Origin: Phoronis australis
Lineage: Eukaryota > Animalia > Phoronida
Direction of reading: 5' to 3'
Assembly (NCBI GenBank): GCA_002633005.1
Contig: NMRA01000021.1
Coordinates: forward strand, 1,237,119-1,301,118
Length of the DNA stretch: 64,000 nucleotides
Shown: in pieces, positions 14,210-40,575 of the stretch
Layout: each line of letters starts with the position of its first letter
Position numbering within the stretch: the first letter of the stretch is position 1
Notes under the pieces: generated by a model
Database searches by the model: none
What the model was told of the DNA's origin: nothing
What the model saw: only the letters and a program-made list of their open reading frames with translations
Program-made: the position numbers and the translations under genes

Positions 14210-14397
14210 ATGACTTCTACGGGGACGCACGCACGGACGGTTCGAGATGATGTGAAGTGCCCCCAGATTTCCATGAAAGACCTTTCCATGGAAAAAGATA
14301 TTCTCGGCAGTGGTGGTTACGGCGCTGTTTATAGAGGTCTATACCGGGGGTTAGATGTGGCTGTGAAGGTGGTCGACCAGCATAAGTACAGTGAACG
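14210..14397 (+). CDS. TKL/RIPK-like kinase(-TRIM-NHL) gene, coding exon 1
   Basis: ATG 14210 with in-frame TGA at 14201; LGSGGYGAVY Gly-rich loop and VAVK; donor cg|gtaggt, phase 2. Confidence 0.9.
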
Positions 14398-14800
14398 GTA
14401 GGTACTATAGGACTCCTACACTCTGATGTTCCGGACCTTTCACAGATATCATTTAGACTTACATGTAATACGATAGGTTTCATGTACGTCTCTAAAAATC
14501 AATATGTGGAGTTAATTGTTTTCCATAGATATCAAGCTGCCAATGCCCGGCGTAACTGTCCAAGTTCCTGTGTATGGGATAAATAAATTTCGATCTCGGT
14601 GGGACATCCGAGATGAAATGAATTCTTGACAGGACAGGGTAGTAGTATGTATGTGGGATAACCTGTATATATGCAAATACAAAATGAAGCAATGCCTGCA
14701 TGAGTGGTGTATACACTGTACATGTAGGATGAACCACTGCCTGCATTTCTTGCATCCTGTATCAAAAATGTATGCGCGCGCGCTCGTGTGTTTGTGTGCC

Positions 14801-14801
<1 letters not shown>

Positions 14802-14874
<73 letters not shown>
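14802..14874. repeat. (TG)n microsatellite, left half of tract split by the Gypsy element
   Basis: Direct reading. Confidence 0.95.
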
Positions 14875-14881
<7 letters not shown>

Positions 14882-15020
14882 GATTATATATTGCGACCGC
14901 TAGATGGCGTGTTGCTTGATGTACGCTCTCTATTGTCTGAAAATAGATATCAAGTGACTTCCTCAAAAATGGTTGTTGTTTGTCTTTGAAGAATTGACTC
15001 GAATCGAATCAACGTTAAGA
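14875..15020 (+). repeat. 5' LTR of Gypsy element
   Basis: Direct repeat of 19247-19404 with several substitutions and a 10-bp indel; ends AAGA instead of AACA. Confidence 0.92.
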
Positions 15021-15040
15021 GTTGGCGACGAGGTCGAAAA

Positions 15041-18000
15041 ATGTCGTCTTTAATTTGATCAATATCTCCATTAACAGAATCAACTAACTTTGATTCATAC
15101 ATCGAACGATTGGAGGCGTATTTCGAGCCAAATGATTTGCCCTCCGGAAAACATGTTAGTTGTTTTTAGCCGTTATCGGTGAAACGGCTTATGATCTGTT
15201 GAAATCATTGTTGTCTCCGGCAGCCCCTAAGGACAAGTCGTTTCAACAATGCGTCGCTGCGCTGAATGAACATTACTCCCCAAAACCGGTGGTGATTATG
15301 GAACGTTTCCGATTCATGAAAAAGATACAAAAGCCCACAGAGTCAATCCGTGATTATATTGTGGCTTTGAAAACCCTAAATATTCACTGTGATTTTAAAA
15401 CTACACTTGAGGAGCGTCTGAGAGACCAGTTGGTTATGGGCCTTTACTCAGATGAAATGCAACAACGTCTCTTACGAGAGAAAGACATGAAATCTCAAGA
15501 TGCCGTTGACATTGTGGTTGCTATGAAGGCGGCGATGAAGGACTCTAAAGAAATCCGCCCAGCACCGCAAGATGTTCACAAAGTAGCTGGAGCTGCAGGT
15601 GGGGTGAAACCCAAGCCCAACCCTGCTCCTCGTAGAACTCGTGGAAATAGCTCCACATCGTCAAACTTCAATGGATCATGCTGGCGTTGCAAAGCCAAGC
15701 ACAAGGCTCATGAGTGCCGGTTCATAAATGCCACATGTTACAAGTGTAGTAAGATAGGGCACATTAAAAAGTCGTGCCATTCAACCCACCATGTATCTGT
15801 GTCTGCAGGCTCTCAAGAAACGTCTCAAGAGGACACTCAGGAGGTGGATGCCTATGGTGTGTATCACATAAATGAAACTATCGGTGATGAGCCAGACAGG
15901 TTGACATTGACTCTTAATGGAATACCTGTTACTATGGAGGTTGACAATGGTTCCAGTCGTTCACTTATGTCTCGTGACACATTTTTCGAGACATGGAGTG
16001 ATGATTCGCATCCAGAACTCGTTAGAGAAGAGTTGCCATTGCGTACGTACACTAAGGAACCGATACCGGTTGTCGGTTCGTGCATTGTTTCTGTGAAATA
16101 CCGAGGTTGTGTCAAGGGTCTGAAGTTGTGGATTGTGGAGAGTGCAGGTCCAACGTTGTTGGTTTGCAGTTGGATGCGCGAGTTCAACATGCAAGGAACA
16201 CCAATTAACTCAGTTGATGTGTCTAAAAATGTGTTGGATGAATTTCCAACTTTTTTCGAACCGGGTTTAGGTACATGTACCTTGCGCGATGTGAAGGCTA
16301 AAATTCATGTGGACCCTGACGTCACACCACTGTTCTACAAAGCTCGCTCTGTGCCTCCTGCTATGCGCATTAGAATAGAAGAGGAGTTGGATCGTTTGCG
16401 GAGGCTTAACATCATTAAACCAGTTGAGATCAGTGATTGGGCTGAGCCCATTGTACCAGTTATCAAGGCTGAGGGTCAGTCATTGCGTATCTGTGGTGAC
16501 TACAAATTAACTGTGAACAAAGTATCTCAGTTAGACCGCTATCCGATTCCGCGTATGGATGGTTTGTTTGCGTCATTAGCCGGTGGACAGAAGTTCACAA
16601 AGTCGGACATGTCGAACGCTTACAACCAACTTGAGTTGGACGAGCAGTCCAAAATGTATACCACTATTAACACACACCGCGGATTGTTTGTCTACAACAG
16701 CCTCCCGTTCAGTAACGCTAGGACCTCACTAAAAAGCAAGACTTCGCGAGATTACGTGAGATATTGCCGTGTATTTTAAATGAGAACACGTGATCTTGAC
16801 TAGATTTTAGCTAGGTCCTAGGGTAGGTCCTAGCGTCTACTGAACGCACGCCAGGTGTTCGTTTGATATTAAGTCAATACCCGGTCTGTTTCAACGCCAT
16901 ATGGAAACGTTGTTGAAAGGTATCCCGCAGGTAGTTGTGTACCTTGATGACGTGCTTGTTACTGGCGTTGATGATAAGGAACACAATCTGTGTGAAGTAC
17001 TGCGTTGTTTCACAGAATCCGGTCTTCGGCTCTGTAAAGACAAGTGTTCACTGATGCAGTCAGAGGTTGTGTATTTGGGTCGTCGCGTCACCTAGGAAGG
17101 ACTTCGCCCTACTCAGGATCGTGTTAAAGCTATCTTGAATGCTCCCGTACCGTCAAATGCCTCTGAACTCAAAGCCTTTTTGGGTATGCTAAACCATTAT
17201 GGATCTTTTTTGCGTGATTTGAGTACATCACTTGAACCTCTTCATCGGTTGTTGAGGCGTAATCAAACTTGGTTTTGGTTGGCAGAGTGTCAGAGGGCAT
17301 TTGATGGTGCGAAGGAACTGCTGTGTTCATCTCCATTGTTAGTTCATTATGACCCTGATAAACCATTACTACTGTCGTGTGATGCGTCTTCGTATGGTTT
17401 AGGTTGCACTTTGTCTCGCATAAACCCTGATGGAATTGAATCGCCTATTGCATATGCATCTAGATCTTTGAACAAGGCCGAACGAAACTATGGGATGGTT
17501 GACAAGGAGGGTCTAGCTTGTGTTTTCGCTGTTAAGAAAATGCACCAGTATGTTTGGGGTCGTAAATTCACACTAGAAACAGATCACAAACCCCTTTTAA
17601 CCCTTTTACATGAGACAAAATCTATACCTCCTATGGCGTCAGCCAGAATGCAGCGTTGGGCCTTGACGTTGTCAGGTTATGATTACTGTATTCGTTATCG
17701 TAAGGGATCAACCAATTGTGTTGCAGATGCTCTCAGTAGATTGCCATTGCCGTTTCAGGAGGTAAACGCTCCTACCCCTGGTGATCTGATTTTGTTGATG
17801 CAAACATTGCAAAAGAGTGAATCTCCTGTATCTGCCTCGCAGTTGAGACTTTGGACAAGTCGTGACCCTGTGTTGTCTACTGTTAAGTCATGTATTATGT
17901 CAGGTAGTTGGGATAAGTTACCACCTGAGTTACTGGATGATTTGACACCATATGTAAGCAGGAAGCTTGAACTAAGTGTACAAGACAACTTAGTTTTGTG

Positions 18001-19189
18001 GGGATCACGTGTGATTATTCCCCCGCAAGGTCGTGTTAAGATTTTAGATGAGTTACATGATGCACATCCTGGTATTTGTGCTATGAAATCTTTGAGTAGA
18101 AACTATGTTTGGTGGCCTGGTTTAGATTCAGCATTGATTGATGTTGTTAAGAAATGTAAAACTTGTCAAATGTTGAGTAAGAAACCTGCTGAGGCACCAT
18201 TGAGTATGTGGCAGTTCCCTACCGCACCTTGGGAAAGGCTTCATATTGATTTTGCTGGACCATTTCTCGGTACATATTTTCTCATAGTCATTGATGCGTA
18301 CTCTAAATGGATTGAGTCATGTACCATGAGCAGCATTACTGCTGAGTTAACCATTGAGAAATTACGTCGTATTTTTGCAACCCATGGTTTGCCTGATACC
18401 ATTGTTTCAGATAATGGTAGTGCATTTATTAGTCAGACAATCCAAGATTTTCTTGTAAAAAACGGTATTAAGCATGTCACTAGTGCGCCATTTAAGCCTG
18501 CATCGAACGGCGCTGCAGAAAGGGCAGTGCAGATTATCAAGAACGGTTTGAAGCGTGTCACTGAAGGGTCGCTCGAAACACGTTTGTCACGGGTTTTACT
18601 GAGCTACAGGACACGACCACTTTCTGTGACGGGAGTTACACCCGCAGAGTTGCTTATGAATCGTAGATTAACGACTGCTTTAAGCAGAGTGAAACCTGAT
18701 TTCACTAGCCGAGTCAAAACTAAACAAGCTGTTCAATGTGAAAATCACAAATCTGGTAAATTACGTGTATTTGAGATTGGTGATAAGGTTCTGTTTCAAA
18801 ACTTTGGTGTTGGCCCTAATAAGTTGTCAGGTATCATTGTGGAAAGTTTAGGGTCTCGCATGTATTTGGTGAAATCTGACAATGACAAATATTATAGGCG
18901 TCATGTTGACCAGATGCAGCTAGATTGTACATCTCCCAGTTTGCATGATAGAAGTGTAGAAGTAACTGATCATTTGTCTTCTGGTAATGATATTGTTAAC
19001 ATTGAACCTGTGCCTATTGTTAATGAGCCTGATTCAGCGACAAGCCCTGATCATGTTGAGTTCACCCATGTTCTCGAATCTAACAGGGATGTCGTGGAAT
19101 CACCCTCAGCATCTGTGCCTGTTCCGGAAGCTCCGCCAGTACCGGCTCCTAGACGTTCGCTTAGAAATGTTAAGCCCCGGACAGGTTGA
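15041..19189 (+). pseudogene. Gypsy gag-pol polyprotein, disrupted
   Basis: Two CCHC knuckles (CWRCKAKHKAHEC, CYKCSKIGHIKKSC), protease MEVDNGS, RT YLDD, RNase H (CDASSYGLG, TDHKPL), integrase (H-H-C-C, HIDF, SDNG, NGAAER); broken by a 154-bp insert at 16701-16854, a TAG at 17093 and 5' lesions. Confidence 0.93.
16698..16854 (+). mobile_element. MITE family M, copy 2, nested in Gypsy RT
   Basis: Removing 16701-16854 restores the frame YN-R-CSFDIKSIPGLFQRHMETLL; near-identical to 8062-8230. Confidence 0.9.
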
Positions 19190-19246
19190 ACTTGTAAAAC
19201 TGTTTGTTGTTCCTGTAGTTAACTTTTCGAAGCTTGAGGGGAAGGG

Positions 19247-19402
19247 TGTAATAGATTATGTATTGCGACTGCTAGATAGCGTGTTGTTTGATGTACGCTC
19301 TCTATTGTCTGAAAAATAGATATCAAGTGACTTCCTCAAAAATGGCCCGGTTTTTGTCTTTGAAGAACTGACTCGAATCGAATCTGAGATCATCAACGTT
19401 AA

Positions 19403-19404
<2 letters not shown>
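19247..19404 (+). repeat. 3' LTR of Gypsy element
   Basis: Follows PPT; TGT...ACA termini. Confidence 0.92.
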
Positions 19405-19448
<44 letters not shown>

Positions 19449-19482
19449 GCGTGTGCGTGTGCGTGCGCGTGCGTGTGTGTGC
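19405..19482. repeat. (TG)n/(TGCGTG)n microsatellite, right half of split tract
   Basis: Direct reading. Confidence 0.95.
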
Positions 19483-20336
19483 ATTTATGTGTGCAGATAT
19501 ACTACGGGTGTATTTGTAAAGTTTTGACGCCCAGATATGATGCTTCAAAGGCGCAAAGAATGGCAAATGATGTATGTAGGTCGCAATGTATTTTTTTAAC
19601 TTGCAACAACCATGCGACGGACGTAAACTGGTCGCATAATTATCGCCTATCGGACGTATCGATTGTTTTGCATTGTTCTGTCTTTGATGAATATAACAAT
19701 GCAGGCCATATGGATATTGTATCTTTGGCGTATATCAGAAGGTTACCGATAAATACTTGTCATTTACAGTCTTTATCATAACAACGGGAGCAAAGGAAAA
19801 GCTAACCTACCGATCTATATCCGATAAGCTTGCGACCTGGTTTGCTTGGGGCTTTCTGGGTTTAACTCCATTATTGTGCATTGTATTTTTCGTAATTAAC
19901 GTTAAAACAATACAGAGATTTGCTGGAATGAAAACATTTGTCGGACCGTCGGAGTTTTCAAACAAGTAACAAAGTAACAAAGTATAGTTTAAACAACGGT
20001 GGGGTGAGGAATTGAGTGAGACCTGACGATAACACAACGTCGCTGACTAGAGCTGGTAAACGGGGCCCACAGGTTTTATTAATAATTACATACACGTACA
20101 GAGCAGTCCGCTGAGTTCAGAAACCTCGATAGCATTGTTCACGAAAGCTACGTGGAGAGTTTCAGGTAAAACAATCCGCTGTCTAAACCACATCTGGCTG
20201 TTTGTTGTCTCAAAAACCGCGCCCAACACGAGGCTCACTCAGGTTGTATAGGCCTACCCAACTTCCAGCTCCACCTATTGATAGCAGTTGAACTGAACAC
20301 AACAACTCTATTTTGATTTCGTTTTTGCTCTTTTAG

Positions 20337-20532
20337 AAACAAACAGATGATTTTGACTTGTAAAGAAGCGCGTTCAATGTGCAATATAGAACACACAAGC
20401 ATTGTCAAGATATATGGCATCATTCTGGACGACATGTGTGGTTTGGTGCTAGAGTTTATTAAGTATGGCTCTCTATGGGATGTACTGCGACTCCTCGAGA
20501 TGAATGAGTCAACTATACCAATAGGTATACAG
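20337..20532 (+). CDS. Kinase gene exon 2 (subdomains III-V)
   Basis: Acceptor ctcttttag|a completes phase-2 Arg; KEARSMCNIEHTSIVKIYGI...LVLEFIKYGSLWDVL; donor cag|gtaaaa, phase 0. Confidence 0.9.
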
Positions 20533-20892
20533 GTAAAAGCATCTTTCAAATTTCAACAAGATTAAAAATAATCTTTGATTGGTAAGCCAATACAAACGTA
20601 TGTATTTACTTGACATGTGTGGTGTGAGCTACATGTACGTGTACATGATTTCTACAGGTCCAGCTACACAAACCCGTAGATTCACTTCCAGGGGCTTTTG
20701 TGACTTCGACTACTAGCAAGTCCTATAGCCATATAACCCCTTCGATTTCAGCACAACGTTTTACTCCCAACTCTTAGAAATATCAGCCACAAGAACTCGC
20801 CCTGACCTGCCCCTGATGTATCATTCTTTGGCGGTATTTGATTTACGTCGCCGCCGGTTTAACTTGGTCAACTGGTCAAGGCATCTGTGTAG

Positions 20893-21175
20893 AGTTCAAT
20901 AACCCTAGGACCTCACTAGGACCTCGTTAGAAAATCAAGACTTCGCGAGATTACTCGAGATGTTGCTGTGTATTTCGAATGGGAACAGTGGCGGATTTAG
21001 AGGGGGCCAAGGGGCCATGCCCCCCGAAAATTCTCCCAGATTCCATTTAGCAATTCGGGGGTACGAATTTCTGATGGGCAAAATCCTGGCTAATACTCTG
21101 CCCTGCCCCCCAACTCAAAATCATGGATCCGCCCATGGGGAGCAGTTCATTTTGGCTAGATTTTTTTAGCTGCGA
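20893..21175 (+). mobile_element. Diverged family M copy with a nested CAGTGGCGG...CCGCCCATG MITE (20986-21137)
   Basis: ctaggacctc...caagacttcgcgagattac matches family M; nested insert flanked by gggaa/gggag. Confidence 0.7.
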
Positions 21176-21543
21176 GACAGCTTCTGAGCTCTACACTGGC
21201 GTGCGTTCCGTAGACGCGAAAATGCAAGATCACCCATTACTTCACGAGAAGTCTACATGTGTTACAAGCGATGCACCTGATCACACTAGCATCTTTCGTG
21301 AGGTTCTGGCATTTACCGAACGCTCTCTTGGTTAGTTTGTAAGCCAGATACCGTCATTGACAACCAAGCCGGTGTCCGAGCCAGTCGACACCTCTGAATC
21401 GGCGTTGATGTCTTGTTGGTTTTACTAGCTAGAAAGCACCTGACTCCATGCTTCTAAAACTTGAGGAAATGTATGTAATTGTCAGGAAAAGAGACATGTT
21501 TAAGTTGCGTTTCTCATTCGTTATCCCAAAATAATATTTACAG

Positions 21544-21663
21544 GTTCAGATGATGGCGGACATATCGGAGGCAATGCGGTACCTGCACAGCGCTACGCCC
21601 CGCCTGATTCATGCTGATCTTAAACTGGGCAACGTTTTAGTTGATGACCGCTTGAAAGCTAAG
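21544..21663 (+). CDS. Kinase gene exon 3 (catalytic loop)
   Basis: Acceptor tttacag|; VQMMADISEAMRYLHSATPRLIHADLKLGNVLVDDRLKAK; donor aag|gtaaag, phase 0; too short for the ORF track. Confidence 0.93.
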
Positions 21664-21783
21664 GTAAAGTAATGTCAACCACGTAATTTTTGAAAAAAAA
21701 ATCGGCATATTAGATTAGGATGAGTGCTCTTATACGTAAATTTTGAGTGACCGCATTACTTTGTTTAATTCTTTTACTTCTAG

Positions 21784-21944
21784 CTATGCGACTTTGGTTT
21801 GTCCATTCTTCAAGGCTACACCAGCGATCTCACCAATTTACCTCGCGCGGAAGGAACTTTGTCCCACATGGCACCAGAGTTATTCAAGCCAGATATAGTC
21901 GGAGAAGAACTTCCTATGAACAGTCCAAAAACGGATGTGTGGAG
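21784..21944 (+). CDS. Kinase gene exon 4 (DFG-APE)
   Basis: Acceptor cttctag|; LCDFGLS...GTLSHMAPELF...KTDVW; donor ag|gtac, phase 2. Confidence 0.93.
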
Positions 21945-22062
21945 GTACTTTATGACGTATACAATGAGCCATGATATCTCAAAAAATCCATAGAACAACT
22001 GATTTATTAGAGTACTATTAAATTTTAGTGAGTATAAAAGCTAACTTTGCAATGGTTTTCAG

Positions 22063-22112
22063 CTTTGGAGTCGCCCTGTTTGAACTCATCAGAAAAGAAT
22101 CTCTGTTCCAAG
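22063..22112 (+). CDS. Kinase gene exon 5 (subdomain IX)
   Basis: Acceptor ttttcag|c completes DVWS-FGVALFELIRKESLFQ; donor g|gtaagt, phase 1. Confidence 0.92.
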
Positions 22113-22260
22113 GTAAGTACAGTGGTAACAATATCAAACCCCTTCTTTCCATCACAAACCTAGTTTTAATTTAGGCCAATTACTGCTAAGAATTTGGTCT
22201 CAAAATTTCTCTCGGTGAAATCCGAGAGTATTTTGAAATAACTAAAATATATGTTATTCA

Positions 22261-22383
22261 AATACTACTACTTCCTTGTCCTGTCGAGAATTCATTTCAT
22301 CTTGGAATGTCCCAAGAAGACCAAAGGTCGAGTTGGGACATTTCAAGTGGAAATGATTTCTAGATAAGACATGCAGTAGTATT
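22261..22383. repeat. Long imperfect palindrome (hairpin element)
   Basis: aatactac...tcatttcatcttggaatgtcccaa / ttgggacatttcaagtggaaatga...gtagtatt. Confidence 0.7.
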
Positions 22384-24679: not shown

Positions 24680-25936
24680 TCAAGGATCAATGTAATTAAA
24701 ACATTTGCGCTGTCTAAAATAATTTATGTGATGAGCAATTTAGGAATTGACAACGTAGAGCTAAGATAAATACTATGATAATAAATTTTGTTTGGCAAAA
24801 TAAACCACCTAGAATAAAAAATGTGGCTGTAAATACCCATGAAAATGTTGGTTTGTCAGTTCCTGATATAAATATTATGTACAAGTCATTATTAGTTAAA
24901 TGGGTTACGCGTTGCTTAGATGGAAACAATGAAATTTTCAAAGTGTTTCCTGGGTATGTTTTTAAAACATGTGGAGGTTTTTTGATCTTTAAATCAAATT
25001 ATGATTGTAAATTGCTGTCTCTTGCAAATATTGATACCTTCTATCTTGACATCTTGATTGCTTGGGAAGAAATTAGTGCTCATTTACATAAGGACATGAC
25101 AATAATAAAAACATATTGATTAATAGGAGGACTGTATTCTTTAATAGTTTCTTTGAGGCTGGTATTACTTTTGTGAAGGCTCTTTTGAACTTAGAAAATA
25201 AATTTCTGACTTGGGAGGTTTTGAAAAATAGATACAAGCTTTCAAATTGGATTCATTATGCTGCTTTGAGACGTGCGATTAAGTTGAAAGCTGATCCTTC
25301 AATTTCAAAATGCATACATCCCCAGTCAAGCCAAATTACTAATTTGTTTTCCAGAAATGTTTTGCTTTCCAAAATTGTTTTGCCTCCTTATATAGAATAC
25401 AGCTTAACTGACATTTACTCTAGACAACGAATTAAACAAATTTATGTTCTTCCACACAAACTCTTGTTACCTCCTTATGTTAAAACCTTTAAGTACTTCT
25501 ATATTTATAGAAAAGTGTTTACAAAACTTATTTTGAAAAAGATTAACTTCGTCAGTGTTGACAAGTGTGCATCTTGTGGAACTGTTGAGACTTTTAACCA
25601 TATGTTTGTGGAATGTGGTTCTGTGAAAACTTTGTGGTGTGAAATTCAGAAACTTTTAATTTACGTAACTGCACAACACGATTTAGTCTTGGATAGAAAT
25701 GTTATTCTGACAGCATATTTTGGATGTAATTTTGAAGATATCAATACCATATTAACTATTTGCCAGTATTTCATCCATAAATGTTCTAGAAGCCAGATTA
25801 TTCCTAAATATTCACAATTTCAATGTTTCTTGTATAATTACTGTAAAGTAAGGAATATACAACCCCGCAAAACTGCCTTTTGGGAAACCATCAATGCCTA
25901 TTTATTTTAGACCAACCGTGAATTTCTGTAATTTAG

Positions 25937-26024
<88 letters not shown>

Positions 26025-27088: not shown

Positions 27089-27151
27089 ACGTGACCATCT
27101 ACGCCAATCGAGGTACGTTTTGTATTTATCCCATACGCTTCTAATTCCTAA

Positions 27152-30552: not shown

Positions 30553-30690
30553 TGTATTCCGCGTAGTTCGAACGGCTAGAAAAAATGCGGATATTCAACT
30601 GTCTGTTTTGTAATCCCCAAGGACGTTGAGATTCGGAAGCGCTGGTTCGTTGGCATACGCCGCGACGAAGGAAAGTATGTCCGTGTAAAA
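30553..30690 (+). pseudogene. Degenerate THAP-domain fragment
   Basis: CIPRSSNG*KKCGYSTVCFVIPKDVEIRKRWFVGIRRDEGKYVRV resembles THAP N-half (F-x-x-P-K-D...R-W...I-R-R); internal stop. Confidence 0.55.
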
Positions 30691-31102
30691 TTTATAAATG
30701 TTTTCCAAAAGTTAGATCATACTTTGTCGCATCTCGGTTGCCGAGCATAGCAACACTATTAACCGGATAATCTTCGGCCAGCCAAGCTGTGTTTTCATGA
30801 CTACGGGTTGAAACATGATGCATTTTTCTTTCCAGAAAGGACAGAGCCCTCAATGATGAATCCCTCGATTTTTGGGCAGAATATTATCCCTATTCCCTTC
30901 TCAAAAATATTCAAAAATCACGCGAAATTCCCCCGACGAGGTCTAAAGATTCCCCTAGTAATTGAAAATTTCTCTTCGAAGTTCAAATCACCTAACCACA
31001 CAGGTGACAATTTGAAAGAGCACAACATGCTACTTCAGACAGAGCCTATGAGAACTTGCAACAGGGAAGGGGTGCTATTGATGGTGATCGAGAGGTAGAT
31101 TA

Positions 31103-31170
31103 CAGTGACGGATTTAGGGGGGGCAAGGGGGACATGGACCCCCTAACTCAAAATTCTGGATCCGCCCCTG
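31103..31170 (+). mobile_element. Short CAGTG..CGG/CCGCCCCTG MITE copy
   Basis: Same termini as 20986-21137 and 60166-60458. Confidence 0.7.
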
Positions 31171-33430
31171 GAGAAAAGATTAATCCTCTCTCCAGAAGGC
31201 ATAGGCACCTTTCCCCTCGGATGAACGAGGCCCCCTGAAAAAACATTATAACTATGCTTGCTCTGTCCTGTTACCTGAAATTGAGCTCGAAACGACGTTA
31301 TGCTTTGGACGAACGAATTAGGTGTTTTAATTTTAAAATTCAGCTCGGTCCAAATTGATATTTGAAACCTAACACATGAAATAGACGTAAGAATTATTAA
31401 AACCAAAAATTCACTGGTCAAATAATTTTTATTTTCAGTTACCAGCCTGGTTATTTATTTTAATAAAAGATATATTTAATAACATCAATTATTCTTTCAG
31501 ATCAATGACTAATCAACTATTAGTCCCGGTAGTCCATACCTCACCAGGACACAGTACGATAGCCACAATTTCGTCATATTTACTTTTTATGATTCAAAAC
31601 TAGTTTTCCGAAAAAATATACCATTTTGTCAGACAACTCTTTGGTGCATTGACTTGTTCTCTAATGTATTTTTCTGCGTCTCTGTAGTTAATTATCGGCA
31701 CATTTTTAAGATTTAATATCCAAGTTGGACTCGAAAGACCGGCCATTTAACTCACGCAATGTCAACTTCCGCTTTGTTTAGGAGGCACAGAACAGTTCTC
31801 ACTTGATTTGTCACATTTTCTTCACTCTGTCAAAAAAAAGAATGCAAAGAATGACATATTTTCAGTTATTTCACATAAAAAGCCCTGCAGCGCAGAAACT
31901 TTATTCTCTCTTGTATTTTTGACCCTTTCAATCCCACTGAAAACCAAGCTAGACTAAGAAAAATAGGGGCAAAAACATCACCTCCTTGCCGATGCACGAC
32001 TAAAACCAACAATAGATTCTGAAAGCAAATTTCCTACAAATTCCGAAAATGTTGTCCAAAAGTACTGTCAACTAACTAGTTTTTTTGGAAATTCTGGCTT
32101 GTTTGAGGGCTACCTAAAATCGCAGCCAATTTCTCAGTCGCTACCCAGCAATGAACAATTGCATCCGGGGGCCGCCATCTTGAAGAAGAGTGCAGCTACA
32201 GCCAAGAAAGTGGCCCTTTTTATTCTCAGCATGTTCACAAACACAAACAAACCACATTCACTGAGCCTGCATGCAATGCCCACCTACAAAATACCCCCAA
32301 ACTTGGCCTACCTCAAAATTTTAATATTTTGGGAGTGTAAATTGGCCGCGGCCGAAGCCTAACTATTCAGTGCCACCTTATCGCAGTGAACCTCGCTTTG
32401 GATTTTAATGGCCGCCGCGTGAGGTAGGTCTATGGTGACTCAGTGACTGAAGGTGCTGAATGTGCATAATTAGCTGATCAGTGCCTGGCGGGAGATTCGA
32501 CTTGAGTGATCGCCACGTGACCTTTGATCCCGGAAAAGTAGTAAACAAATTTCCACGCGGTTGTGCGGTTCCAAGGTGGTTCTGCTGTTTTTTTTCTCTA
32601 CACGGTAAATATTTGGTATTTAAAGTTCCTCGAGAATGAATCATAAGGTATTTTGCTAGACATACGTGAAATATTGTAAAAATGACCGAGTTTTGTGAAT
32701 AAGGTTTGAGATATTGTTAAAACTTTGAATCGCTCAATGATATAAAAAGGTTGTCTGAAACTTCATAATGAATTAATAAGTTAAAACAATGAACCATTCA
32801 ATAATATCAAAAGTTCGTCGGAAACTTAGAAAGAATCCATCCGGTAATATAAACATTAAAACACAAACTGAACTGTTTTGCAGCAATGTGTGGTTTTAGC
32901 TTCGATGAATTTCTTAGTTTTTAGATTTATTCTAGGTCTACTTTCATGTCTTATCTTCTGGATTGGAAATAGTAGCAGAATTGTTTTCCCCCTGCTGATC
33001 ACAGCAATGGTGATTTACAGAACTTGAGATAATAGCTGTTATCGCAAAAATCGGTTTTGCGCTACTAAAGTCGAGGATCGCAGCGAGCATAAGATTGTGT
33101 CAGAAAAATAATCTATATTATGTCACAATTTCCTATAAATACCATTTTCGATTGATTTGGATTGGATTTTGTCTTATTTTGTTGGGGACGTCATGTAGGC
33201 ACTATTAATGAGTTCATGAGTGCAAGAGCTTTGAGAAACCAACAATGAATAGTCCAGTTTGCGTTACCCACTTCCGATGCAATAAAACTGTAGTTGACCG
33301 GGCAACCGAGGGAGTGTGGGGGCATGCTAATTCAGCGTTTGCTGACAGAAAGCTGTTATGAAACAACAACTCGTTTTTGTATGCTATGGTCAGATGTTAG
33401 AGAAATCTTTATTTAGAAATATATTCATTA

Positions 33431-33590
33431 CATGGGCGCACTCGAGGTGCTCGGAGGGCTCGAACACAACTCGTAGCTCATAGGTCTGAACCTAGTTTTT
33501 GTTTTAGTCCTCGTTGAGTTTTTTGGGGTAAAAGGTTCGCATATCGAAAAATTCGAGACCCCCCTATATTTTAGGCTGGGTGCGCGCATG
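33431..33590 (+). mobile_element. MITE family C (CATGCGCGCACCC-type TIR)
   Basis: catgggcgcac...gtgcgcgcatg; flanks catta/cgtta; 3' end shared with 56186-56441 and 63333-63590. Confidence 0.75.
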
Positions 33591-34532
33591 CGTTATTCGA
33601 ATCATTGTTATTGTGCAACCTTTCGCCCTGACGGTTCTGTGGAGTGGGAACTTGACTTCACATCTCCAGAGGAGTAAGTAGGTTTGAAATTTCACGGCCA
33701 ATTCTTCAAAAAATATTCACGTACATGTTATTTCTTTAGATCAGCAGTCTAATCTTTTCGTGACTGGAAGTCCATTTTTCAACTTAAGCAGCCGACTAAC
33801 TTGGCTGGTTAATGTTCGTGATGCCTCCATTCCGCGACCGGGTTCCGAGGGACTCGATTATACCGAGAGTTTTCTGTCTTTAGAAAAGGAAAAAATTCGC
33901 AAGTTTAAAATTTCAACACTTGCTATTATCGAGTGGATCTACTCTATCTAAATTGATACAAAAAACGCCGTTTTTTGGTGTCATTCTCTTTTAAAATTAG
34001 CGAACCCTAGCAATAAACAGCCTTATCAAAGTGCATGAGAATTTTTATCGGTAATCTTTTCTGAAAGTTACAGTTTTCAAGTAGTAAAGCAACTTTTTTA
34101 GAATATACGAGGAATACTGCCTCTACCGTTGTATACGGGTTGGCTTTTACGTCATATTCAATGGTTCTATTTTCACATACATGGGACAAAGTTCGATATT
34201 TTTCAAAACTAGGTCACAAGTTTTCAGGTCCTGGCTATGTGATAAACTTTCAGGTCCTGGCTAGGTCATAAAGTTTCAAATCTTGACTAGATCTTGGTTT
34301 GAAGGCACGGTTTATTAGTTGTTCTCAAGCCCAGAGCACATTTCTACACTGAGTAACATACAAGAAAATTTAATGGTAAGTGGCCAAAATCAAAACTCGA
34401 CTACTTTGAAAAAATGTCGTTAACCAGTATCTTGAATTGTTTGTTGGGACACATTTAAGGTGGTTCAATCTATTAGCAAGTAGGTAGTCGTAGGTACTTT
34501 CTTTTGAATAGTATTGTTCATTGTTCTTTCAG

Positions 34533-34682
34533 GCTTGCAAAAAGAAATTGTTATACATCAAATTTTGCGTGGAATAAAAGATCCCTGCATGAGTCAACTG
34601 GAGAATTGTGAACCTTCCATACTGGTAGAAGTGGTCTCTGCCTGCCTTGAATATCACCCCACCGACAGAACGGATTTCGAGA
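34533..34682 (+). CDS. Kinase gene exon 6 (subdomains X-XI)
   Basis: Acceptor ttctttcag|gc completes phase-1 Gly; LQKEIVIHQILRGIKDP...LVEVVSACLEYHPTDRTDFE (C-x4-P-x2-R-x2-F); donor a|gtaagc, phase 1. Confidence 0.88.
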
Positions 34683-36342
34683 GTAAGCTTAGTGACGTTG
34701 AATGACTCAACCACACTTTCACATAAATTACGCTGCATTGATTTGGCCGGCTCAAACATCTAAGACATGTAGTTGGTTGTCAACGACGATATCAGGCTTT
34801 TTAACCAATCAGATGTCTTAGCCAGTTCACCCAGAGGAGCCTGCACGGCAGATTAAGTAAGCTAATCTCTTATAATCACACCATGTTGCCTTGTTTGTTA
34901 AGCCTTTTCGCTACAGAAATGATAATTATTCAATAGCCACCGGTGACTCACACTGACGACTCCGCAATTTAACTCTCATTGATGCTGTCTCTTTCACTAA
35001 AATGTAATTTTACGAAGCATTTTATATACGCACAGTCTGAACAGAGTATTACCTCAAAAACTGCGACGGGACAGGCTCTTTATAGTCCCTATAGTCCCGT
35101 CCTTGCACAACTTACCCGAGAACAATGCAACTTATCCCACTTTTTTGTGGACTACCGTCCACACCCACACTCATGACCAATAAGTGAGGGTAAGGCGAAA
35201 ACAGTCGCTCTATGCATGATAATGAAGAGCTTATGCGAATACGGTGCGCAAAAGGAGACAACAGTTGATAACTACTTCCGCCTTGTCCCACGTTTTCGGT
35301 CACACAGCGATTAGAATGGCTCAAGTTACTCAAGAACAAGTTACTCAGCCTCGATATGGTGGAGCATAGAGCTCAAGCCTTGGAATGCTAACGGCGCATG
35401 CGAGAGAGTGTTTTTGCATTCGTTTGTGTTGATGTGTGTACTTGTTATGAACTTTACTGTCATTAAAATTGTTCACAACTCCGACGTTTTTCAACCGAAT
35501 ACCATAATTAAAACATATCGTTAGAAAGCCTTTGATCAGGTCTTGATGATTATACCAGAGCATAATTATAGTTTTGCATAACTAACTGGTTTACAATTAT
35601 TTTAATTCTAAAAACCAAAACTGTTACCAAAATGCGAAAAATAACAGCGGGTAGTTGTAACATAAAAATAAAATGAACCATAGAGTGTTAATGATTATTT
35701 AAGCCATTTGGCAAATAATTTCAATGATCCAAAATATGTCTACCCTACAAACACAACGGCTTTAAAAATATAAATCCCTCACAAATGCTGCGGACAATTT
35801 AGTCAGGCATTCATTCAAAACTATACATCTTTATGTAATTTATTGGATCTTTGGTGCCATTAGATACAATCACAATCTTCAGAAGAAATCAGAATGCAGT
35901 GAAATTTACGAAAAAGGCGGTAAGCTACTCCAAGTATCTATCCGAAATGTGTAAAAAAAGATTTTCTGGTAAATCAAAAATGGGCAAACATCACAAAGCT
36001 TTGATACATACTGTGGATAGCTCATCCCATTGGTTGCAATGTTAGTCTTTCCAAGAGCCATATTGAAATCAAATAGATGTTGCGATGCCGTGCAGTTACC
36101 AACGAATAAAATATAACTTAAAACTGGTAAAACTAAAATGACGAGCGTCTGTACTAAAATATATTAAAATATCCCCGCGTATCGAGCGGTGCGCTCTTTC
36201 TCAAGGGTGTGCTACAGGCTGCTGAAAACATGTGGATAGATCTAAAGTAAAAACGGCACAGACATAGTCATATGCAATAAACGTGAACAATATGAACACA
36301 ACAGGACATAGCAACTATCAGTGAGGTAGGCCTACGTATGGC

Positions 36343-36362
36343 GAGAGAGAGAGAGAGAGAGA
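36343..36362. repeat. (GA)n microsatellite
   Basis: Direct reading. Confidence 0.9.
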
Positions 36363-36427
36363 CCCAAACAGAGACATTCGCAGCTACTGGAGTCTATTCA
36401 CTACAGACTTGTAGTGAGACAAAACCC

Positions 36428-36659
36428 CTACATGTGTATGTCTCTGTTTAGGCCTCTGGCGTGAGTGTTAAACTTTGCGATGAATTCAGCCTCGCATTTT
36501 CTACGTCCGCCTCTGACTACAAGTACATCGCCATCACTGGTAGTATGGCCTGGGAGGTTGAAATGTTCCCTAATGGTGACCGCCCTATTATTGTGAAGAA
36601 TCGTCTGCCTATGGCCATTCATCCCAGTGCGTAACGAGTTACATGTCTCCCCTAAGTAC
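36428..36659 (-). mobile_element. Penelope-like element GIY-YIG endonuclease C-terminal fragment
   Basis: YLGETCNSLRTGMNGHR...EHFNLPGH...E...I.KFNT...GLNRD, the typical Penelope/Poseidon EN tail. Confidence 0.8.
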
Positions 36660-37163
36660 CACGCGACAAGATTGTGTTCATGTATTATCGGGTTTGTTCA
36701 CGAATGTTGAAGAGAAATCGCTGACTGTATGGAACCGAACCTCAAAAGTTTCGTTTCATGAAGAACAATAACAAAATTACAATGAGAAATGTATTTAGGC
36801 TTGATTTTATCGACGACAACTCTCGATCAAAACTCATTCAAGCAGGCAGCCTTAAATTCTCAGTGCAAACTCTCGCGACAAGTCTTGGGGTCGCAAGCTC
36901 TTATAAAATATATTGGTCATAAGCATTCCAGGTTCTATGGATGAATTACATGCAAGTTGTCAAAAGTGGGATAAATTGCAATAGTTTGAATAGCGATCAC
37001 ACAGCCTCTAAACCTAGCGACAACTTGTTCCAAGAGGGTAAGTCTGATTGTGGACGGCATTTATATAAGACATCGTAAATTTACTGCGATATTTTGTCAG
37101 TGAGGCTCCTGTGTCGCAACTAATCTTGTGCGCATGAATTTTTCTCTTTCGTTTTCGTTTTAG

Positions 37164-37252
37164 AAATGGCATCTTTACTTCACGACGAGTTTATTGCAAC
37201 CTACCACATATCTTATATCGAAGATCTCGAATTTTTGACAGAGCTCCTTCAG
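37164..37252 (+). CDS. Kinase gene exon 7 (end of kinase fold plus linker)
   Basis: Strong acceptor tttctctttcgttttcgttttag|aa completes phase-1 Lys: KMASLLHDEFIATYHISYIEDLEFLTELLQ; donor cag|gtaaat, phase 0, no stop. Confidence 0.8.
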
Positions 37253-37483
37253 GTAAATTACGTTCACTGCACTGCACTTGTGAATGTGCTTCAAACGCTT
37301 ATGACCAATATGCTCGAAATTCAATATGCGTGGTCATTTCTCGAGACTGTCACGTGTATTTCACTGTTTACCTCGCCATGTATAATCCACTTATTGCCTG
37401 ATGATGAGACATGCAGTCTAGAAATATAGTTAGTGTTTTAATTATTGTTGTTTGTGTCTCTCTGTGTTTTACTACATACAGTG

Positions 37484-37719
37484 TAGTTGCACACCAGAAC
37501 AAAAGAGATTATTTCGAAATTACGTGCGAACCAGTATCAAGCTTGGAAACAAACAGTCTAGTCGTGTTTTCAACGGAGTTTGTGTAAACGAAGTGCTGCA
37601 ACCGAACTATAATGATTTAGGTATATACCGTTGAAATCACTACTAAACGTCTTTTTTGAAAGTTTGGTACAGAACCGCTCGTAGTGTCGAAACAATCTCT
37701 TTTCTTCTGTATGCAGCTA
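37484..37719. mobile_element. Foldback MITE with long TIRs
   Basis: tagttgcacaccagaacaaaagagattatttcga / tcgaaacaatctcttttcttctgtatgcagcta; related pieces at ~59090-59310. Confidence 0.7.
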
Positions 37720-38451
37720 TGCAGCAAAAAATCGACAGACATAACAAACAAAGTAATTCAAACACTATTTCGAAGTTGCACGTCTAATCATCGGGTAATA
37801 AGTGGAATGAACATATGCGAAGCAAATTAAACAGTGAAGAAAATACACTTGACATCGGGAAGTGGGCCATACAAGCAGGTAGAGTGAATGCAACACGCGG
37901 TAGGAAGCCCACAACCTATCGAAACAGACCAGCGTGCGGTACACACCTGGGAGCTGCTCATTAAACATTTTTTGCGGCTGGTCAATGGCAATTCCAAAAG
38001 CTATAGCCAAAATGTGGCATTTTCAACATGCAGGAAAAATTGCGAACTCAAGATGAGTATCTATTAGTGTGTGCTAAAGAACTTAAAATTTATGTATATG
38101 AGTTTCCACTCCACGTTCGCACTAGATGACCCCTAAATTTGAATTAAAACCGGATTAAAAGCTCAAAATTTCGAGTTCAGACTGGCAGACTTTAAGCCTT
38201 GATACTGGAATCATCAAGCGCAAAAAAGATTAGCCAGTTATCCACCTAAGCCAGAATGCCCACGGACGTAGAGTAACACAAAGGTAGATGATTCTGAGCT
38301 CGCGCAATATAAGAGTAGAGAATACAAAAAAATAATTTCACGTTCGATGTCGGGTACAAAGGTCAGATCTCCGGCCCAGATCACTCTAGGCCTTTAACAC
38401 CACATGTAAATAACGGCTTAAGGTGGTGCATTGAGCTTTTATCTGTTGAAG

Positions 38452-40575
38452 ATGACACTAGCTCCACAACAGCTGGACACAGATGCAGGTTCGCTAAGTC
38501 ACCAAAAAGAACTGTTCACCAATCTCTTTAATACACTTCTTTCTTTTCAGCAGGAGCCCAACCAGAATGAGGGGAATGGTCAAGGAGCTCTTCCCGACAA
38601 AAGGATAGTCGAGATGCGGGAAATGTTGAGGTGTAAGAGTTGCCAAAGACTGCCCACGAAGCCCACAACTTTGCCATGTCTACATATATTATGCGAGAAA
38701 TGTTTAGGCCAACACATGGCAAAGAAGGCAGAAATCCTATGTTCTACGTGTAACGTGAAATTTGCTACTCCAAAAGATGCTGCACCTGAATACGGTTTCA
38801 AAAGAAATGTGTATCTTGAGAATATTAGTAAAATTTTAGCGAACGACGACAATGTCCACTGCGATAACTGTAAAAGTGACAGTTGTGACGCTCTAGCGTC
38901 TTCAATGTGCGCTGAATGTTCGAATTATTTGTGCCAAAAATGTGCACGGAACCATCGTCTTTACGCAAGGAAACACTACGTTGCAGATTTAGATGACGTC
39001 AAAAATGGAAAATACTTCGACCATATTCGTGCTCACCAAAAAGTACGCTGTTGTGTTCATAAGGATAAAATTTTGGATATCTATTGTGAACAGTGTGAGA
39101 TTCCTATTTGCTCACACTGCTGTGCCTCGAGTCATTCTCAGCACAAGTTGAAAGAGCTAAACAGTGCTGCAAAAGAGTCGACAGAACTATTGCGTATGCA
39201 GTTAGAGCCTTGGACTGAAGTTGTACAACACTCCAAAATGTTGTTCGAGGAACGGAAACAAATTCTTCAAAAGTTGGGGCAGCAGAAGGAAGAGTGTGAG
39301 TGTGAAATAAAAAAATGTTACAGCTCAAACCAAGCGATTACACAGATAACTCCCCAACAGCTGATTCAGTTTCGTCTAAACACTACTGTTCGTCAGCTAA
39401 ACGAGTGCGCAAAGGAGGCAAGAACACAGGCGCAAATTGCTTGTGACCAAGCTGAATTGAACAAAGTAAAGTTTTCCAGTGTCGTACAGTATGTGAATAA
39501 CATTTTAGAGACAGCACAAGATGCTGAGAAACTGTACCAACTTAAGGAAATTAGGTCACGCCTTAAGCGCTTGGAAGTAAATGAAACTGAAATGCAGTTG
39601 AGAAAACCACTGTTCAGGTTACAACTCGGTAGACCAGGTTCTGATTTCACTATTAACGTTACATTAGATTACGAAATTGTGCCATCTAAACAGTCTAAAA
39701 AATATGCTTCACTTGGACGTAAATTACCCGCCCTCTATGGAGCCCGAAAAAGGGCTATTAATAACCGGCATTCCCAGCTTGTGTGGAGATTTAGCGTCCG
39801 ACGCGTTGCCGGGGACAGAGAGGGCTTGTTCGGATGTTGGGGAATGGCAGTAAGTGATGGTCAGTTGATGGTAGCAGATAGGGACAACAAGAATTTTAAG
39901 GTCTATGATAAAAAAACTTTCGAATTTCAAGGCACGATTTACCCTCAAACCACATCACCTCAATACGAACTTGACCCTTGGGCAGTGGCATGTAATAAAC
40001 ACGGTCACTGGTTCGTTACCGACCGCGTAACCCAAAGTATTCACAAGTACGACGCTCAAGGTTCTATACTGAATGTCTACCCAAGTGCGTATAAAGGTGA
40101 GGTGTATGTTACATGCCACAACGACGAGCTGATATTGGCAGATAGAGCAGATGGCCGACTAATATTCAGTGACTTTGATTGTAAGGTTCATCATCAGATA
40201 GACGGCCAATCCCTGGGGCTTAGTGACTTCTCACCTCGCTGGTTGTGTGTGGATGAAATTTCTGGCCATTTAATTGTCAGTCAGCAGTTCCCTGGCCGTG
40301 TGTATGTTATTGATTGCAAACGGCTGGCTATTGTAAACACGTTCACTGATGAACTGGGTTATCCGGAGGGTGTTTGTGTGGATAAATTTGGGAACATTCT
40401 CGTTACTGACTGGTCGAATGACCGGATAATTTTGTTCAGAAATGCACGTGCACAAGTGCTTACCGTCCCCGGTGACCTCTCTTTGCCGACAGGTATATGC
40501 GTCTCAGCCCCAGGGAAGGTGTCAGTACTTGAGTTTTCGGGACGAATAAAAGTGTTCAATTACTTGGGTTTCTAA
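38452..40575 (+). CDS. TRIM-NHL module (RING, B-box1, B-box2, coiled coil, NHL repeats); probable terminal exon of the kinase gene
   Basis: C3HC4 RING CKSC...PCLHILCEKC...CSTC; B-box1 CDNC...CAEC...LCQKCARNH; B-box2 CCVH...YCEQCEIPICSHC...HSQH; NHL repeats (PWAVA, YPEGVCVDKFGNILVTDWSNDRI, LPTGICV); intact 2.1-kb ORF; phase-0 acceptors at 38451 and 38550. Confidence 0.93.
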   Translation: MTLAPQQLDTDAGSLSHQKELFTNLFNTLLSFQQEPNQNEGNGQGALPDKRIVEMREMLRCKSCQRLPTKPTTLPCLHILCEKCLGQHMAKKAEILCSTCNVKFATPKDAAPEYGFKRNVYLENISKILANDDNVHCDNCKSDSCDALASSMCAECSNYLCQKCARNHRLYARKHYVADLDDVKNGKYFDHIRAHQKVRCCVHKDKILDIYCEQCEIPICSHCCASSHSQHKLKELNSAAKESTELLRMQLEPWTEVVQHSKMLFEERKQILQKLGQQKEECECEIKKCYSSNQAITQITPQQLIQFRLNTTVRQLNECAKEARTQAQIACDQAELNKVKFSSVVQYVNNILETAQDAEKLYQLKEIRSRLKRLEVNETEMQLRKPLFRLQLGRPGSDFTINVTLDYEIVPSKQSKKYASLGRKLPALYGARKRAINNRHSQLVWRFSVRRVAGDREGLFGCWGMAVSDGQLMVADRDNKNFKVYDKKTFEFQGTIYPQTTSPQYELDPWAVACNKHGHWFVTDRVTQSIHKYDAQGSILNVYPSAYKGEVYVTCHNDELILADRADGRLIFSDFDCKVHHQIDGQSLGLSDFSPRWLCVDEISGHLIVSQQFPGRVYVIDCKRLAIVNTFTDELGYPEGVCVDKFGNILVTDWSNDRIILFRNARAQVLTVPGDLSLPTGICVSAPGKVSVLEFSGRIKVFNYLGF

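Follow-up and report, generated by a model that had tools for sequence, protein, structure and literature searches.

The question raised by this locus is whether a protein kinase and a TRIM-NHL protein are encoded by one gene in Phoronis australis, and what such a protein might do. The window analysed was a stretch of 64000 bp (GenBank assembly GCA_002633005.1, contig NMRA01000021.1; coordinates 1237119–1301118, forward strand), and positions below are those of the window, with all features on the forward strand. An earlier note, made from the sequence alone, had proposed a RIPK/TKL-like kinase fused to a complete TRIM-NHL E3 ligase.

Gene structure and genetic context

The seven kinase exons in that proposal were all reproduced, including coordinates, GT-AG ends and phases (2, 0, 0, 2, 1, 1, 0), and when spliced they give 318 aa that are free of stop codons and include every kinase motif named. 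Exon 1 (14210–14397), for which the 5′ end was placed from the sequence, carries the ATG, the Gly-rich loop and Lys53 of the VAVK motif, and ends in a phase-2 donor. It is followed by exon 2 (20337–20532; αC Glu73 and the hinge, read depth ~4), exon 3 (21544–21663; catalytic loop with His151-Ala152-Asp153, Lys155 and Asn158), exon 4 (21784–21944; DFG with Asp171, the activation loop, APE with Glu200, and Asp219) and exon 5 (22063–22112), which is 50 nt long and directly past the donor of which read depth falls below 0.1. The C-lobe is completed by exon 6 (34533–34682; subdomains X–XI with Arg284) and exon 7 (37164–37252), which has a phase-0 donor and, as described, no stop codon, so that reading through its end leads to a stop at 37429 (377 aa). 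The series of intron phases and the 50-nt exon 5 presumably resemble those of RIPK2.

Exon 6 is one of two forward-strand matches to a subdomain XI-like motif between exon 5 and the TRIM exon, the other of which meets an immediate stop, and no alternative candidate exon that could complete the kinase was found in intron 5. As exons 6 and 7 are required to complete the kinase fold, this counts against a kinase core (exons 1–5) that ends elsewhere. The TRIM reading frame (38422–40575) is intact, and the RING, two B-boxes, coiled coil and NHL region claimed for it were all found, including by Pfam scan. Exon 8 (38551–40575; stop codon at 40573–40575) includes the entire TRIM-NHL body as a single exon, and a probable poly(A) signal, AATAAA (40714–40719), lies in the same bin as the end of read depth.

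Intron 1 holds a broken LTR retrotransposon of the Ty3/Gypsy type (14874–19384; gag, RT, RNase H and integrase) with terminal repeats 92% alike, which is outside the protein. A small repeat lies at ~20986–21150, and repeats on both strands span 37342–38277. No further host-gene domain was identified by Pfam in 119 scanned open frames (of 238 frames of at least 62 aa), and the matches in those 119 were otherwise to retroelement domains, together with two weak matches below cut-off.

Transcription of the fused gene

RNA reads from three runs (X2, X3 and X4), chosen by species label and representing three samples of one study, were mapped, with ~18–19/100 of each run sampled; contigs from a second study span only part of exon 8. 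Eight reads (1, 2 and 5 in X2, X3 and X4, respectively) join exon 7 to 38551, and five (4, 0 and 1) join it to 38554, a third acceptor 3 nt downstream that differs from the first by a single Gln. The exon 6–7 junction was found in 13 reads (5, 0 and 8), equal to the exon 7–TRIM total of 13, and because the reads are stranded it could be seen that all reads across these junctions are from the sense strand. The exon 2–3 (2, 3 and 1 reads), exon 3–4 (1, 2 and 4) and exon 4–5 (5, 3 and 2) junctions were also present, making five of seven junctions seen in reads; exon 1–2 and exon 5–6 (12.4 kb), which are outside the mapped stretches, were deduced. Median depth over the TRIM exon (5.7, 3.4 and 7.2 in X2, X3 and X4) is similar to that of the kinase exons (~4–5), though the two sets were mapped with different likeness cut-offs. 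A paralogous NHL transcript is also expressed in X4.

Two acceptors had been proposed, and while that at 38551 is used, no junction from exon 7 to 38452 was listed (junctions with fewer than 3 reads per run go unlisted). Depth in 38278–38511, directly upstream of the TRIM exon, is 0.3, 0 and 0. Together these indicate that the product is the predicted form of 992 aa (991 aa with the 38554 acceptor) and not that of 1025 aa, which has no support in the RNA. A separate promoter for the TRIM exon was rejected, as depth of ~0 upstream leaves no separate 5′ UTR. Read-through to the stop at 37429 was also rejected as the major form; it may occur as a minor one, as repeats cover 37342–38277.

It was thus confirmed that the kinase exons are spliced onto the TRIM-NHL exon in one expressed gene, in agreement with the single kinase-RING-B-box-B-box-coiled-coil-NHL transcript proposed, and chance is excluded because of the junction reads and because exon 6 holds the sole usable subdomain XI-like motif. 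A pair of adjacent genes joined by splicing of read-through transcripts, or a recent chimera with little function, with exons 1–5 mostly ending elsewhere and a TRIM part in decay, would fit the deduced exon 5–6 junction, the low expression (depth 2–7), the degenerate RING described below and the failure of protein searches to find an orthologue. However, exon 7–TRIM and exon 6–7 joins are equally frequent, the TRIM exon has no 5′ UTR of its own, exons 6 and 7 complete the kinase fold with no other candidate exon in intron 5, and the frame of 992 codons keeps all catalytic and zinc-binding residues despite 21–25% identity to relatives, making this explanation very unlikely.

The kinase domain

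All of the catalytic residues (K53, E73, D153, K155, N158, D171, E200, D219 and R284) are present, and the Gly loop, β3 Lys, αC Glu, HxD-x-K-x-x-N motif, DFG, APE, αF Asp and subdomain XI Arg are thus all kept. Pfam matches to kinases were obtained with exons 1–4 (E <0.02) and exon 6 (E 0.18). No Arg precedes the catalytic Asp, hence the kinase is of the non-RD type (PMC8463890).

When compared with PDB entries exon by exon, the best matches were EGFR, LRRK2, MLK4 and RIPK3 for exon 1, TAK1, ZAK and RIPK1 for exon 2, RIPK2 for exon 3, RIPK3 for exon 4 and, weakly, ABL for exon 6. The kinase is therefore likely to be TKL-like, with RIPK2 and RIPK3 the best matches for two exons. The earlier designation as TKL/RIPK-like fits these matches in part, but exons 1, 2 and 6 are matched at least equally well by other TKL or TK kinases.

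In RIPK2, activation comes about through crowding and trans-phosphorylation, and the Arg by which RIPK2 and BRAF form side-by-side dimers is found eight residues after the αC Glu (Glu66 and Arg74 in RIPK2; PMC5436651). Counting from Glu73, this position is Glu81 in the Phoronis kinase, which speaks against a side-by-side dimer of the RIPK2 type.

The RING and its E2-facing surface

The RING is of the C3HC4 type (38632–38754; aa 346–385, with Asn386 at the linchpin position) and retains 8 of 8 zinc ligands. It starts at aa 346, behind the kinase, so that the junction reads place the RBCC module away from the N-terminus. The Pfam RING match (E 1.9e-3) is below Pfam's cut-off, and the best matches were to TRIM56 (1.3e-7) and TRIM2. 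In TRIM2, hydrophobic contacts with the E2 are made by I25, Y50, P61 and V62 (PMC9732051), and R64 is the linchpin (PMC13591260); these five align with S348, H373, S383, T384 and N386, respectively.

None of the four canonical E2-face features is present, although relatives keep them in 53, 41, 55 and 41 of 59 cases, and only one of the 59 has a RING as degenerate. That four TRIM2-type contacts and the linchpin have all been replaced makes the earlier description as a complete E3 ligase doubtful. Single positions are less telling: Thr in place of V62 is frequent (11 of 64 relatives), and while the linchpin is R, K or H in 41 of 59 relatives, 30 of 66 human RING TRIMs have no linchpin Arg and TRIM32 (Ser) is active, hence the linchpin change alone proves little. 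TRIM pseudoligases are known and may be scaffolds (PMC11992055, PMC13591260), and, judged from its residues, the RING is likely ligase-dead and the TRIM part a pseudoligase scaffold.

A protein that is both a kinase and an active ubiquitin ligase, as the earlier note had it, making chains with an E2 of a non-canonical kind or with the RING of a partner such as the expressed NHL paralogue, would be consistent with the retention of all eight zinc ligands and both predicted dimer helices, with the human TRIMs that lack the Arg, some of which are active, and with the paralogous transcript in X4. But five positions of the E2/ubiquitin face have changed jointly, four of them to polar residues, a degree of degeneration shared by one of 59 relatives, and this bifunctional form is unlikely.

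B-boxes, coiled coil and NHL propeller

B-box 1 (38860–38976) and B-box 2 (39049–39144) were identified by Pfam (two stretches, E 3.7e-5), alignment and the AlphaFold2 model, and their ligands are invariant or nearly so among the aligned relatives. The AlphaFold2 model of exon 8 (pLDDT 88.3) includes both helices that flank the RING and predicts a long helical hairpin (39157–39579), the TRIM coiled coil, with helices at residues 203–263, 269–321 and 324–343 of exon 8 and pLDDT mostly above 90 over the block; a single-sequence fold prediction (pLDDT 33.6) was uninformative.

A RING homodimer via the flanking helices was also predicted, with a score of 0.45 against 0.00 for the best control, contacts agreeing in at least 86% and pLDDT of at least 71. 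Of solved microbial pairs, 21 of 30 attain this mark, as against 0 of 23 single chains; for eukaryotic pairs the figure is 17 of 29 (7 of 16 from animals), falling to 1 of 7 where there is no older solved relative. As the TRIM2 RING dimer is already solved, the result may reflect TRIM RING dimers known to the predictor.

A six-bladed NHL β-propeller (39775–40560) is predicted by Pfam (E 6e-10), AlphaFold2 and fold comparison, with no filamin domain ahead of it. The closest solved folds are those of Thin, TRIM71, TRIM2 and Brat (20–25% identity), and some class VII TRIMs bind RNA via the NHL (PMC9732051). These likenesses would suit a post-transcriptional regulator like Brat or TRIM71 that delivers a built-in kinase to mRNPs in the germ line or in development, outside immunity and with clustering optional; RING-less Brat, which PMC3503706 lists as TRIM-like, indicates that the ligase can be dispensed with. 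However, 20–25% is a low identity, the kinase is non-RD with RIPK2 and RIPK3 the best matches for two exons, and the body clusters with invertebrate TRIM56/TRIM2-like proteins, with no TRIM71 or Brat orthologue, so a role of this kind appears improbable.

Relatives and prior descriptions

A kinase part was present in 0 of 182 fetched proteins, and no kinase-TRIM orthologue was among them (best identity 25%). Among the best 150 of 11691 representatives, those with long N-terminal extensions (P0016, P0043, P0047, P0058 and P0064) were rejected, as was P0198, because they hold low-complexity or repeated TRIM sequence and not kinases. Word-index searches, which are weak evidence, gave only distant TRIM/NHL proteins (7 matches) with the protein, and no match with exon 2 (3 candidates) or with the RING-B-box region (124 candidates). 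The protein clusters near exon 8 (608–837 aa) show no kinase family; exon 8 groups with lineage-specific invertebrate TRIM56/TRIM2-like clusters, and in a FastTree phylogeny joined only P0126, another long branch, a placement flagged as unsafe.

No kinase-RBCC-NHL architecture is described in the titles and opening abstract lines searched, or in the available passages of PMC8195603, PMC9334734 and PMC3503706, and TRIM is mentioned 0 times in the main text of two papers on RIPK evolution.

Comparison with known systems

Plant KEG and MEKK1 likewise combine a kinase and a RING-type domain in one chain, but have no B-box, coiled coil or NHL, a different order and an active RING. The order of RING, two B-boxes, coiled coil and six-bladed NHL is that of class VII (subfamily C) TRIM-NHL proteins (TRIM2, TRIM3, TRIM32, TRIM56, TRIM71, Thin and Brat), from which the Phoronis protein differs in the 318-aa kinase before the RING, the degenerate E2 face and identity of at most 25% to fetched relatives.

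RIP kinases have an N-terminal TKL-type kinase and a C-terminal interaction module (PMC12119088), an arrangement shared by RIPK1–5, lancelet expansions and the Phoronis protein, the non-RD loop of which is like the HHD of RIPK2 (PMC5436651). Here, however, the module is RBCC-NHL (Pfam found only RING, B-box and NHL) in place of a DD, RHIM, CARD or ankyrin module, and the RIPK2 dimer Arg is absent. As in the TRIM pseudoligases (TRIM6, TRIM15, TRIM22 and TRIM51, and class VI RINGs), a RING is present with E2~Ub contacts or the linchpin altered (PMC11992055), but here there is a second catalytic domain, carried by none of those, and inactivity is a prediction from the sequence.

A TRIM oligomerisation module is also joined to a kinase in the oncogenic fusions TRIM24-BRAF and TRIM24-NTRK2, for which the paradigm is a 'dimerisation motif plus intact kinase' (PMC4175590), and in TRIM33-RET. 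Those fusions are somatic and constitutive, with the RBCC before the kinase and the TRIM C-terminal domain lost, whereas the Phoronis gene is germline, with the kinase first and the NHL sensor kept.

Proposed mechanism and origin

The reading we prefer, to which we give an even chance, is that one expressed gene makes one 992-aa protein, in which a ligase-dead TRIM scaffold carries a signalling kinase that is activated by clustering, probably with a function in innate defence. The coiled coil had been proposed as the dimeriser, and one is indeed predicted, but as a kinase switch this is too simple: TRIM coiled coils are antiparallel (PMC13591260), and in a resting dimer would thus keep the two kinases separate. 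If the NHL propellers bind a ligand (RNA or protein) multivalently, the dimers may cluster, and RING-RING and B-box contacts across neighbouring dimers could then bring together the kinases, tethered ~27 residues from the RING, so that they phosphorylate one another in trans. In this way the TRIM clustering switch would have come to deliver phosphate in place of ubiquitin. The gene may have arisen by capture, with an intronless TRIM-NHL gene becoming the final exon of a seven-exon, RIPK-like kinase cassette that had a phase-0 intron at its end.

More tentatively, the protein may serve invertebrate immunity as a cytosolic receptor kinase complete in one chain: its NHL sensor and its ligase-dead RING, the latter as dimeriser, would drive a kinase that is RIPK-like and non-RD, with the TRIM clustering switch rewired from ubiquitin to phosphate. 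The innate-immune role is one that we infer, and is without direct support, as the closest NHL folds include several RNA-binding developmental regulators.

Implications

TRIM proteins are regarded as sensors that turn the clustering of targets into ubiquitin chains, and RIP kinases as enzymes that depend on separate receptors for their clustering. What is new here is a RING in which the zinc ligands and the predicted dimer helices persist while the canonical E2-face features are all lost (0 of 4). The reach of the finding is so far limited to one gene in one species. It provides a germline, reverse-order counterpart of the oncogenic TRIM-kinase fusions, and among invertebrates it extends the C-terminal modules of RIPK-like kinases by a new one. 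An expressed TRIM-kinase gene that has shed the ligase surface and kept the dimer surface suggests that TRIM scaffolds serve generally as clustering switches with an exchangeable output enzyme, and provides a natural test case for the purpose of pseudoligase TRIMs.

Structure and transcription of the fusion gene

The window is animal DNA with many retroelement remains. Seven forward-strand exons had been assigned to a kinase in the earlier note, and these were upheld: all (14210–14397, 20337–20532, 21544–21663, 21784–21944, 22063–22112 (50 nt), 34533–34682 and 37164–37252) have GT-AG ends with phases 2, 0, 0, 2, 1, 1 and 0, and together they encode 318 aa free of stops. Two candidate acceptors (AG ending at 14197 and 14207) sit immediately 5' of the ATG, and an additional exon may precede exon 1. 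Exons 1–4 matched Pfam kinase models in consecutive order, the kinase match of exon 6 was weak (E 0.18), and for the frame of exon 7 there was none. An intact open frame on the same strand (38422–40575), that of the TRIM exon (exon 8), gave Pfam matches to NHL (6e-10), B-box (3.7e-5) and RING (1.9e-3, short of the curated threshold).

Stranded RNA runs from three samples of a single study (X2–X4; ~18–19 in 100 of each run sampled) were placed on 34300–41300 and 20250–22300, with a junction listing threshold of at least 3 reads per run. Reads (X2/X3/X4) joined exon 7 by GT..AG splices to 38551 (1/2/5) and 38554 (4/0/1), a tandem CAG-CAG acceptor at 38548–38553 (8 and 5 reads) through which one Gln is gained or lost in the kinase-RING linker. 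Of the two acceptors proposed previously, 38551 was borne out by its 8 reads, while no junction from exon 7 to 38452 was listed in X2–X4, where those below 3 reads per run are unlisted; the predicted fusion product is 992 or 991 aa.

Exons 6 and 7 were joined by 5/0/8 reads and, in 20250–22300, exons 2 and 3 by 2/3/1, exons 3 and 4 by 1/2/4 and exons 4 and 5 by 5/3/2, so that five of the seven junctions were observed in RNA. The other two (exons 1–2 and 5–6) lie outside the sampled stretches and are predicted from phase, unbroken kinase motifs and the lack of an alternative candidate exon in intron 5. Depth fell below 0.1 beyond exon 5. All exonic reads in 34300–41300 came from + strand RNA, and the 3' end of read depth falls in the bin of an AATAAA at 40714.

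Reads joining exon 7 to the TRIM exon equalled those joining exons 6 and 7 (13 each), and depth was ~4–5 over the kinase exons and a median of 5.7/3.4/7.2 over the TRIM exon (likeness cut-offs differ between the two comparisons), as expected for a single transcript. Depth across 38278–38511 was 0.3/0/0, which leaves no room there for a separate 5' UTR of the TRIM exon. Contigs of a second study (X1) covered 39378–40671 among the pieces shown and carried no junction. A read-through or decaying chimera is very unlikely beside the matching counts in X2–X4, and a full-length kinase-TRIM-NHL fusion very probably exists. Fixed read differences at 20507 (Glu120Gly) and 21849 (silent) look like alleles. 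In X2, one or two reads extended over the 3'-terminal 190 nt of intron 2 (21354–21543), either from RNA not yet spliced or from occasional use of an acceptor farther upstream.

At 40188, 107 of 112 X4 reads differed from the window, diverging on both sides (40137–40234), and manual translation of the loose ends there in the TRIM frame gave an NHL peptide resembling that of the fusion gene. These reads point to a paralogue expressed in the same species, ~15–20 times deeper than the fusion gene in X4.

Surrounding DNA

Intron 1 contains a broken Ty3/Gypsy-type LTR retrotransposon (14874–19384) within a GT microsatellite, with terminal repeats 92% alike. It is interrupted near 16694–16856 by a small repeat with further copies at 8058–8232 and 20916–20987. 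LINE-type reverse-transcriptase remains (RVT_1, zf-RVT) were found at 4433–6069, 24751–25910 (in intron 5) and 45529–46648. Between 35400 and 38200, repeats in introns 6 and 7 carried reads from both strands, and opposite-strand joints were numerous around 37443–37751 and 36111–36214, a pattern like that of inverted-repeat elements. On the same strand, 12 kb downstream of the gene, a single 1020 aa frame with numerous leucine-rich repeats (52732–55794; LRR_8, E 9e-99) apparently encodes a cell-surface LRR protein; by eye, its product starts with what looks like a signal sequence and is hydrophobic at the C-terminal end. An assembly gap (233 N, 4499–4731) is outside the gene.

The kinase domain

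The kinase is likely to be catalytically active, as K53, E73, H151-A152-D153, K155, N158, D171-F-G, E200, D219 and R284 are all kept. The best solved relatives were EGFR, LRRK2, MLK4 and RIPK3 for exon 1, TAK1, ZAK and RIPK1 for exon 2, RIPK2 (2.5e-5), CTR1 and IRAK1 for exon 3, RIPK3 (0.03) for exon 4 and, below significance, ABL for exon 6. By these exon-wise matches the kinase appears TKL-like, with a lean toward RIPK that falls short of a family assignment. The intron phase series and the 50-nt exon 5 may match those of the RIPK2 gene. The dimer Arg of RIPK2 at Glu66+8 (PMC5436651) is replaced here by Glu81, which counts against RIPK2-type regulation. The catalytic loop (His151-Ala152-Asp153) is of the non-RD type; kinases of this class, frequently low in activity, have been associated with innate immunity in plants as well as animals (PMC8463890).

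The TRIM body and its RING

An AlphaFold2 model of exon 8, built from an alignment of 65 sequences (pLDDT 88.3), has a RING flanked by two helices, then two B-boxes, a helical hairpin, a beta-hairpin of small size and a six-bladed propeller; a filamin domain was absent from this model. The closest folds were the NHL domains of Thin, TRIM71, TRIM2 and Brat. The protein might be an RNA-binding developmental regulator, a reading we consider improbable.

The earlier note had described a complete E3 ligase. The RING, B-boxes and NHL are indeed present and all eight RING zinc ligands are kept, but the E2 face has none of the four canonical features, which makes the fusion a probable pseudoligase, a character then overlooked. 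The best sequence matches of the RING were TRIM56, TRIM2 and TRIM5. The E2-facing residues I25, Y50, P61 and V62 of TRIM2 (PMC9732051) and its linchpin R64 (PMC13591260) aligned with S348, H373, S383, T384 and N386. Of 64 relatives, 59 had every zinc ligand aligned (five rows with missing ligands excluded); in these 59, four of the E2-face and linchpin positions carried I/L/V in 53, a hydrophobic residue in 41, Pro in 55 and R/K/H in 41, and only one relative, P0111 from a coral, was equally bare. P0111 represents an Acropora TRIM71/45-like cluster, a candidate invertebrate pseudoligase.

The RING is probably ligase-dead or nearly so, judged from these residues. Against full certainty, linchpin substitutions have mild to abolishing effects (PMC12326332), Arg is missing from the linchpin of 30 of 66 human RING TRIMs, and TRIM32, which has Ser there, is active. 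A non-canonical active ligase, which the intact zinc ligands and TRIM32 would allow, is unlikely beside the bare E2 face.

Two RING copies were predicted to pair via the flanking helices (0.45 vs 0.00 for the best control; contact agreement of 86% or more, pLDDT no lower than 71). Of solved eukaryotic pairs, 17 of 29 attained the pairing mark, as did 0 of 30 single chains but only 1 of the 7 pairs that lack an earlier solved relative, so memory of TRIM2 may explain the predicted pairing.

Relatives of the fusion protein

Exon 8 gave 11,691 matches (E ≤ 0.001) against 1.84 billion representatives, and among the matches listed the nearest named TRIM relatives belong to lancelets, molluscs, corals and a brachiopod. 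The kinase matched none of 182 fetched proteins, including those from the best 150 of the 11,691, and relatives among that 150 with long N-terminal extensions had no kinase domain. Among the relatives fetched, identity reached 25% at most, the tree gave no safe neighbour and no orthologue was found.

The architecture was not found in the titles and abstract openings listed for freely available articles; an equivalent that has been annotated but never described may exist. In the passages covered, the main text of two papers on RIPK evolution (PMC9573974, PMC12119088) nowhere mentions 'TRIM', and kinase mentions in a TRIM evolution paper (PMC3503706) were all within references. In cancer, TRIM24 is found fused to BRAF or NTRK2 with the domain order reversed (PMC4175590).

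Proposed mechanism and origin

In the dimers formed by TRIM proteins the coiled coils are antiparallel, and RING pairing then depends on higher-order assembly (PMC13591260). With the kinase tethered ~27 residues ahead of the RING (aa 318 to 346), a resting dimer would hold its two kinases at opposite ends. Once the NHL propellers bind ligand, the dimers would cluster, RING-RING pairing between them would draw kinases together, and proximity would permit trans-phosphorylation, much as crowding does in RIPK2 (PMC5436651). This clustering model predicts a lost E2 face and a kept dimer face; for the mechanism as a whole we put the chances as even. From the gene anatomy, an intronless TRIM-NHL exon may have been captured behind a phase-0 intron. 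The expressed kinase-TRIM-NHL architecture is real, built from known parts and apparently undescribed.
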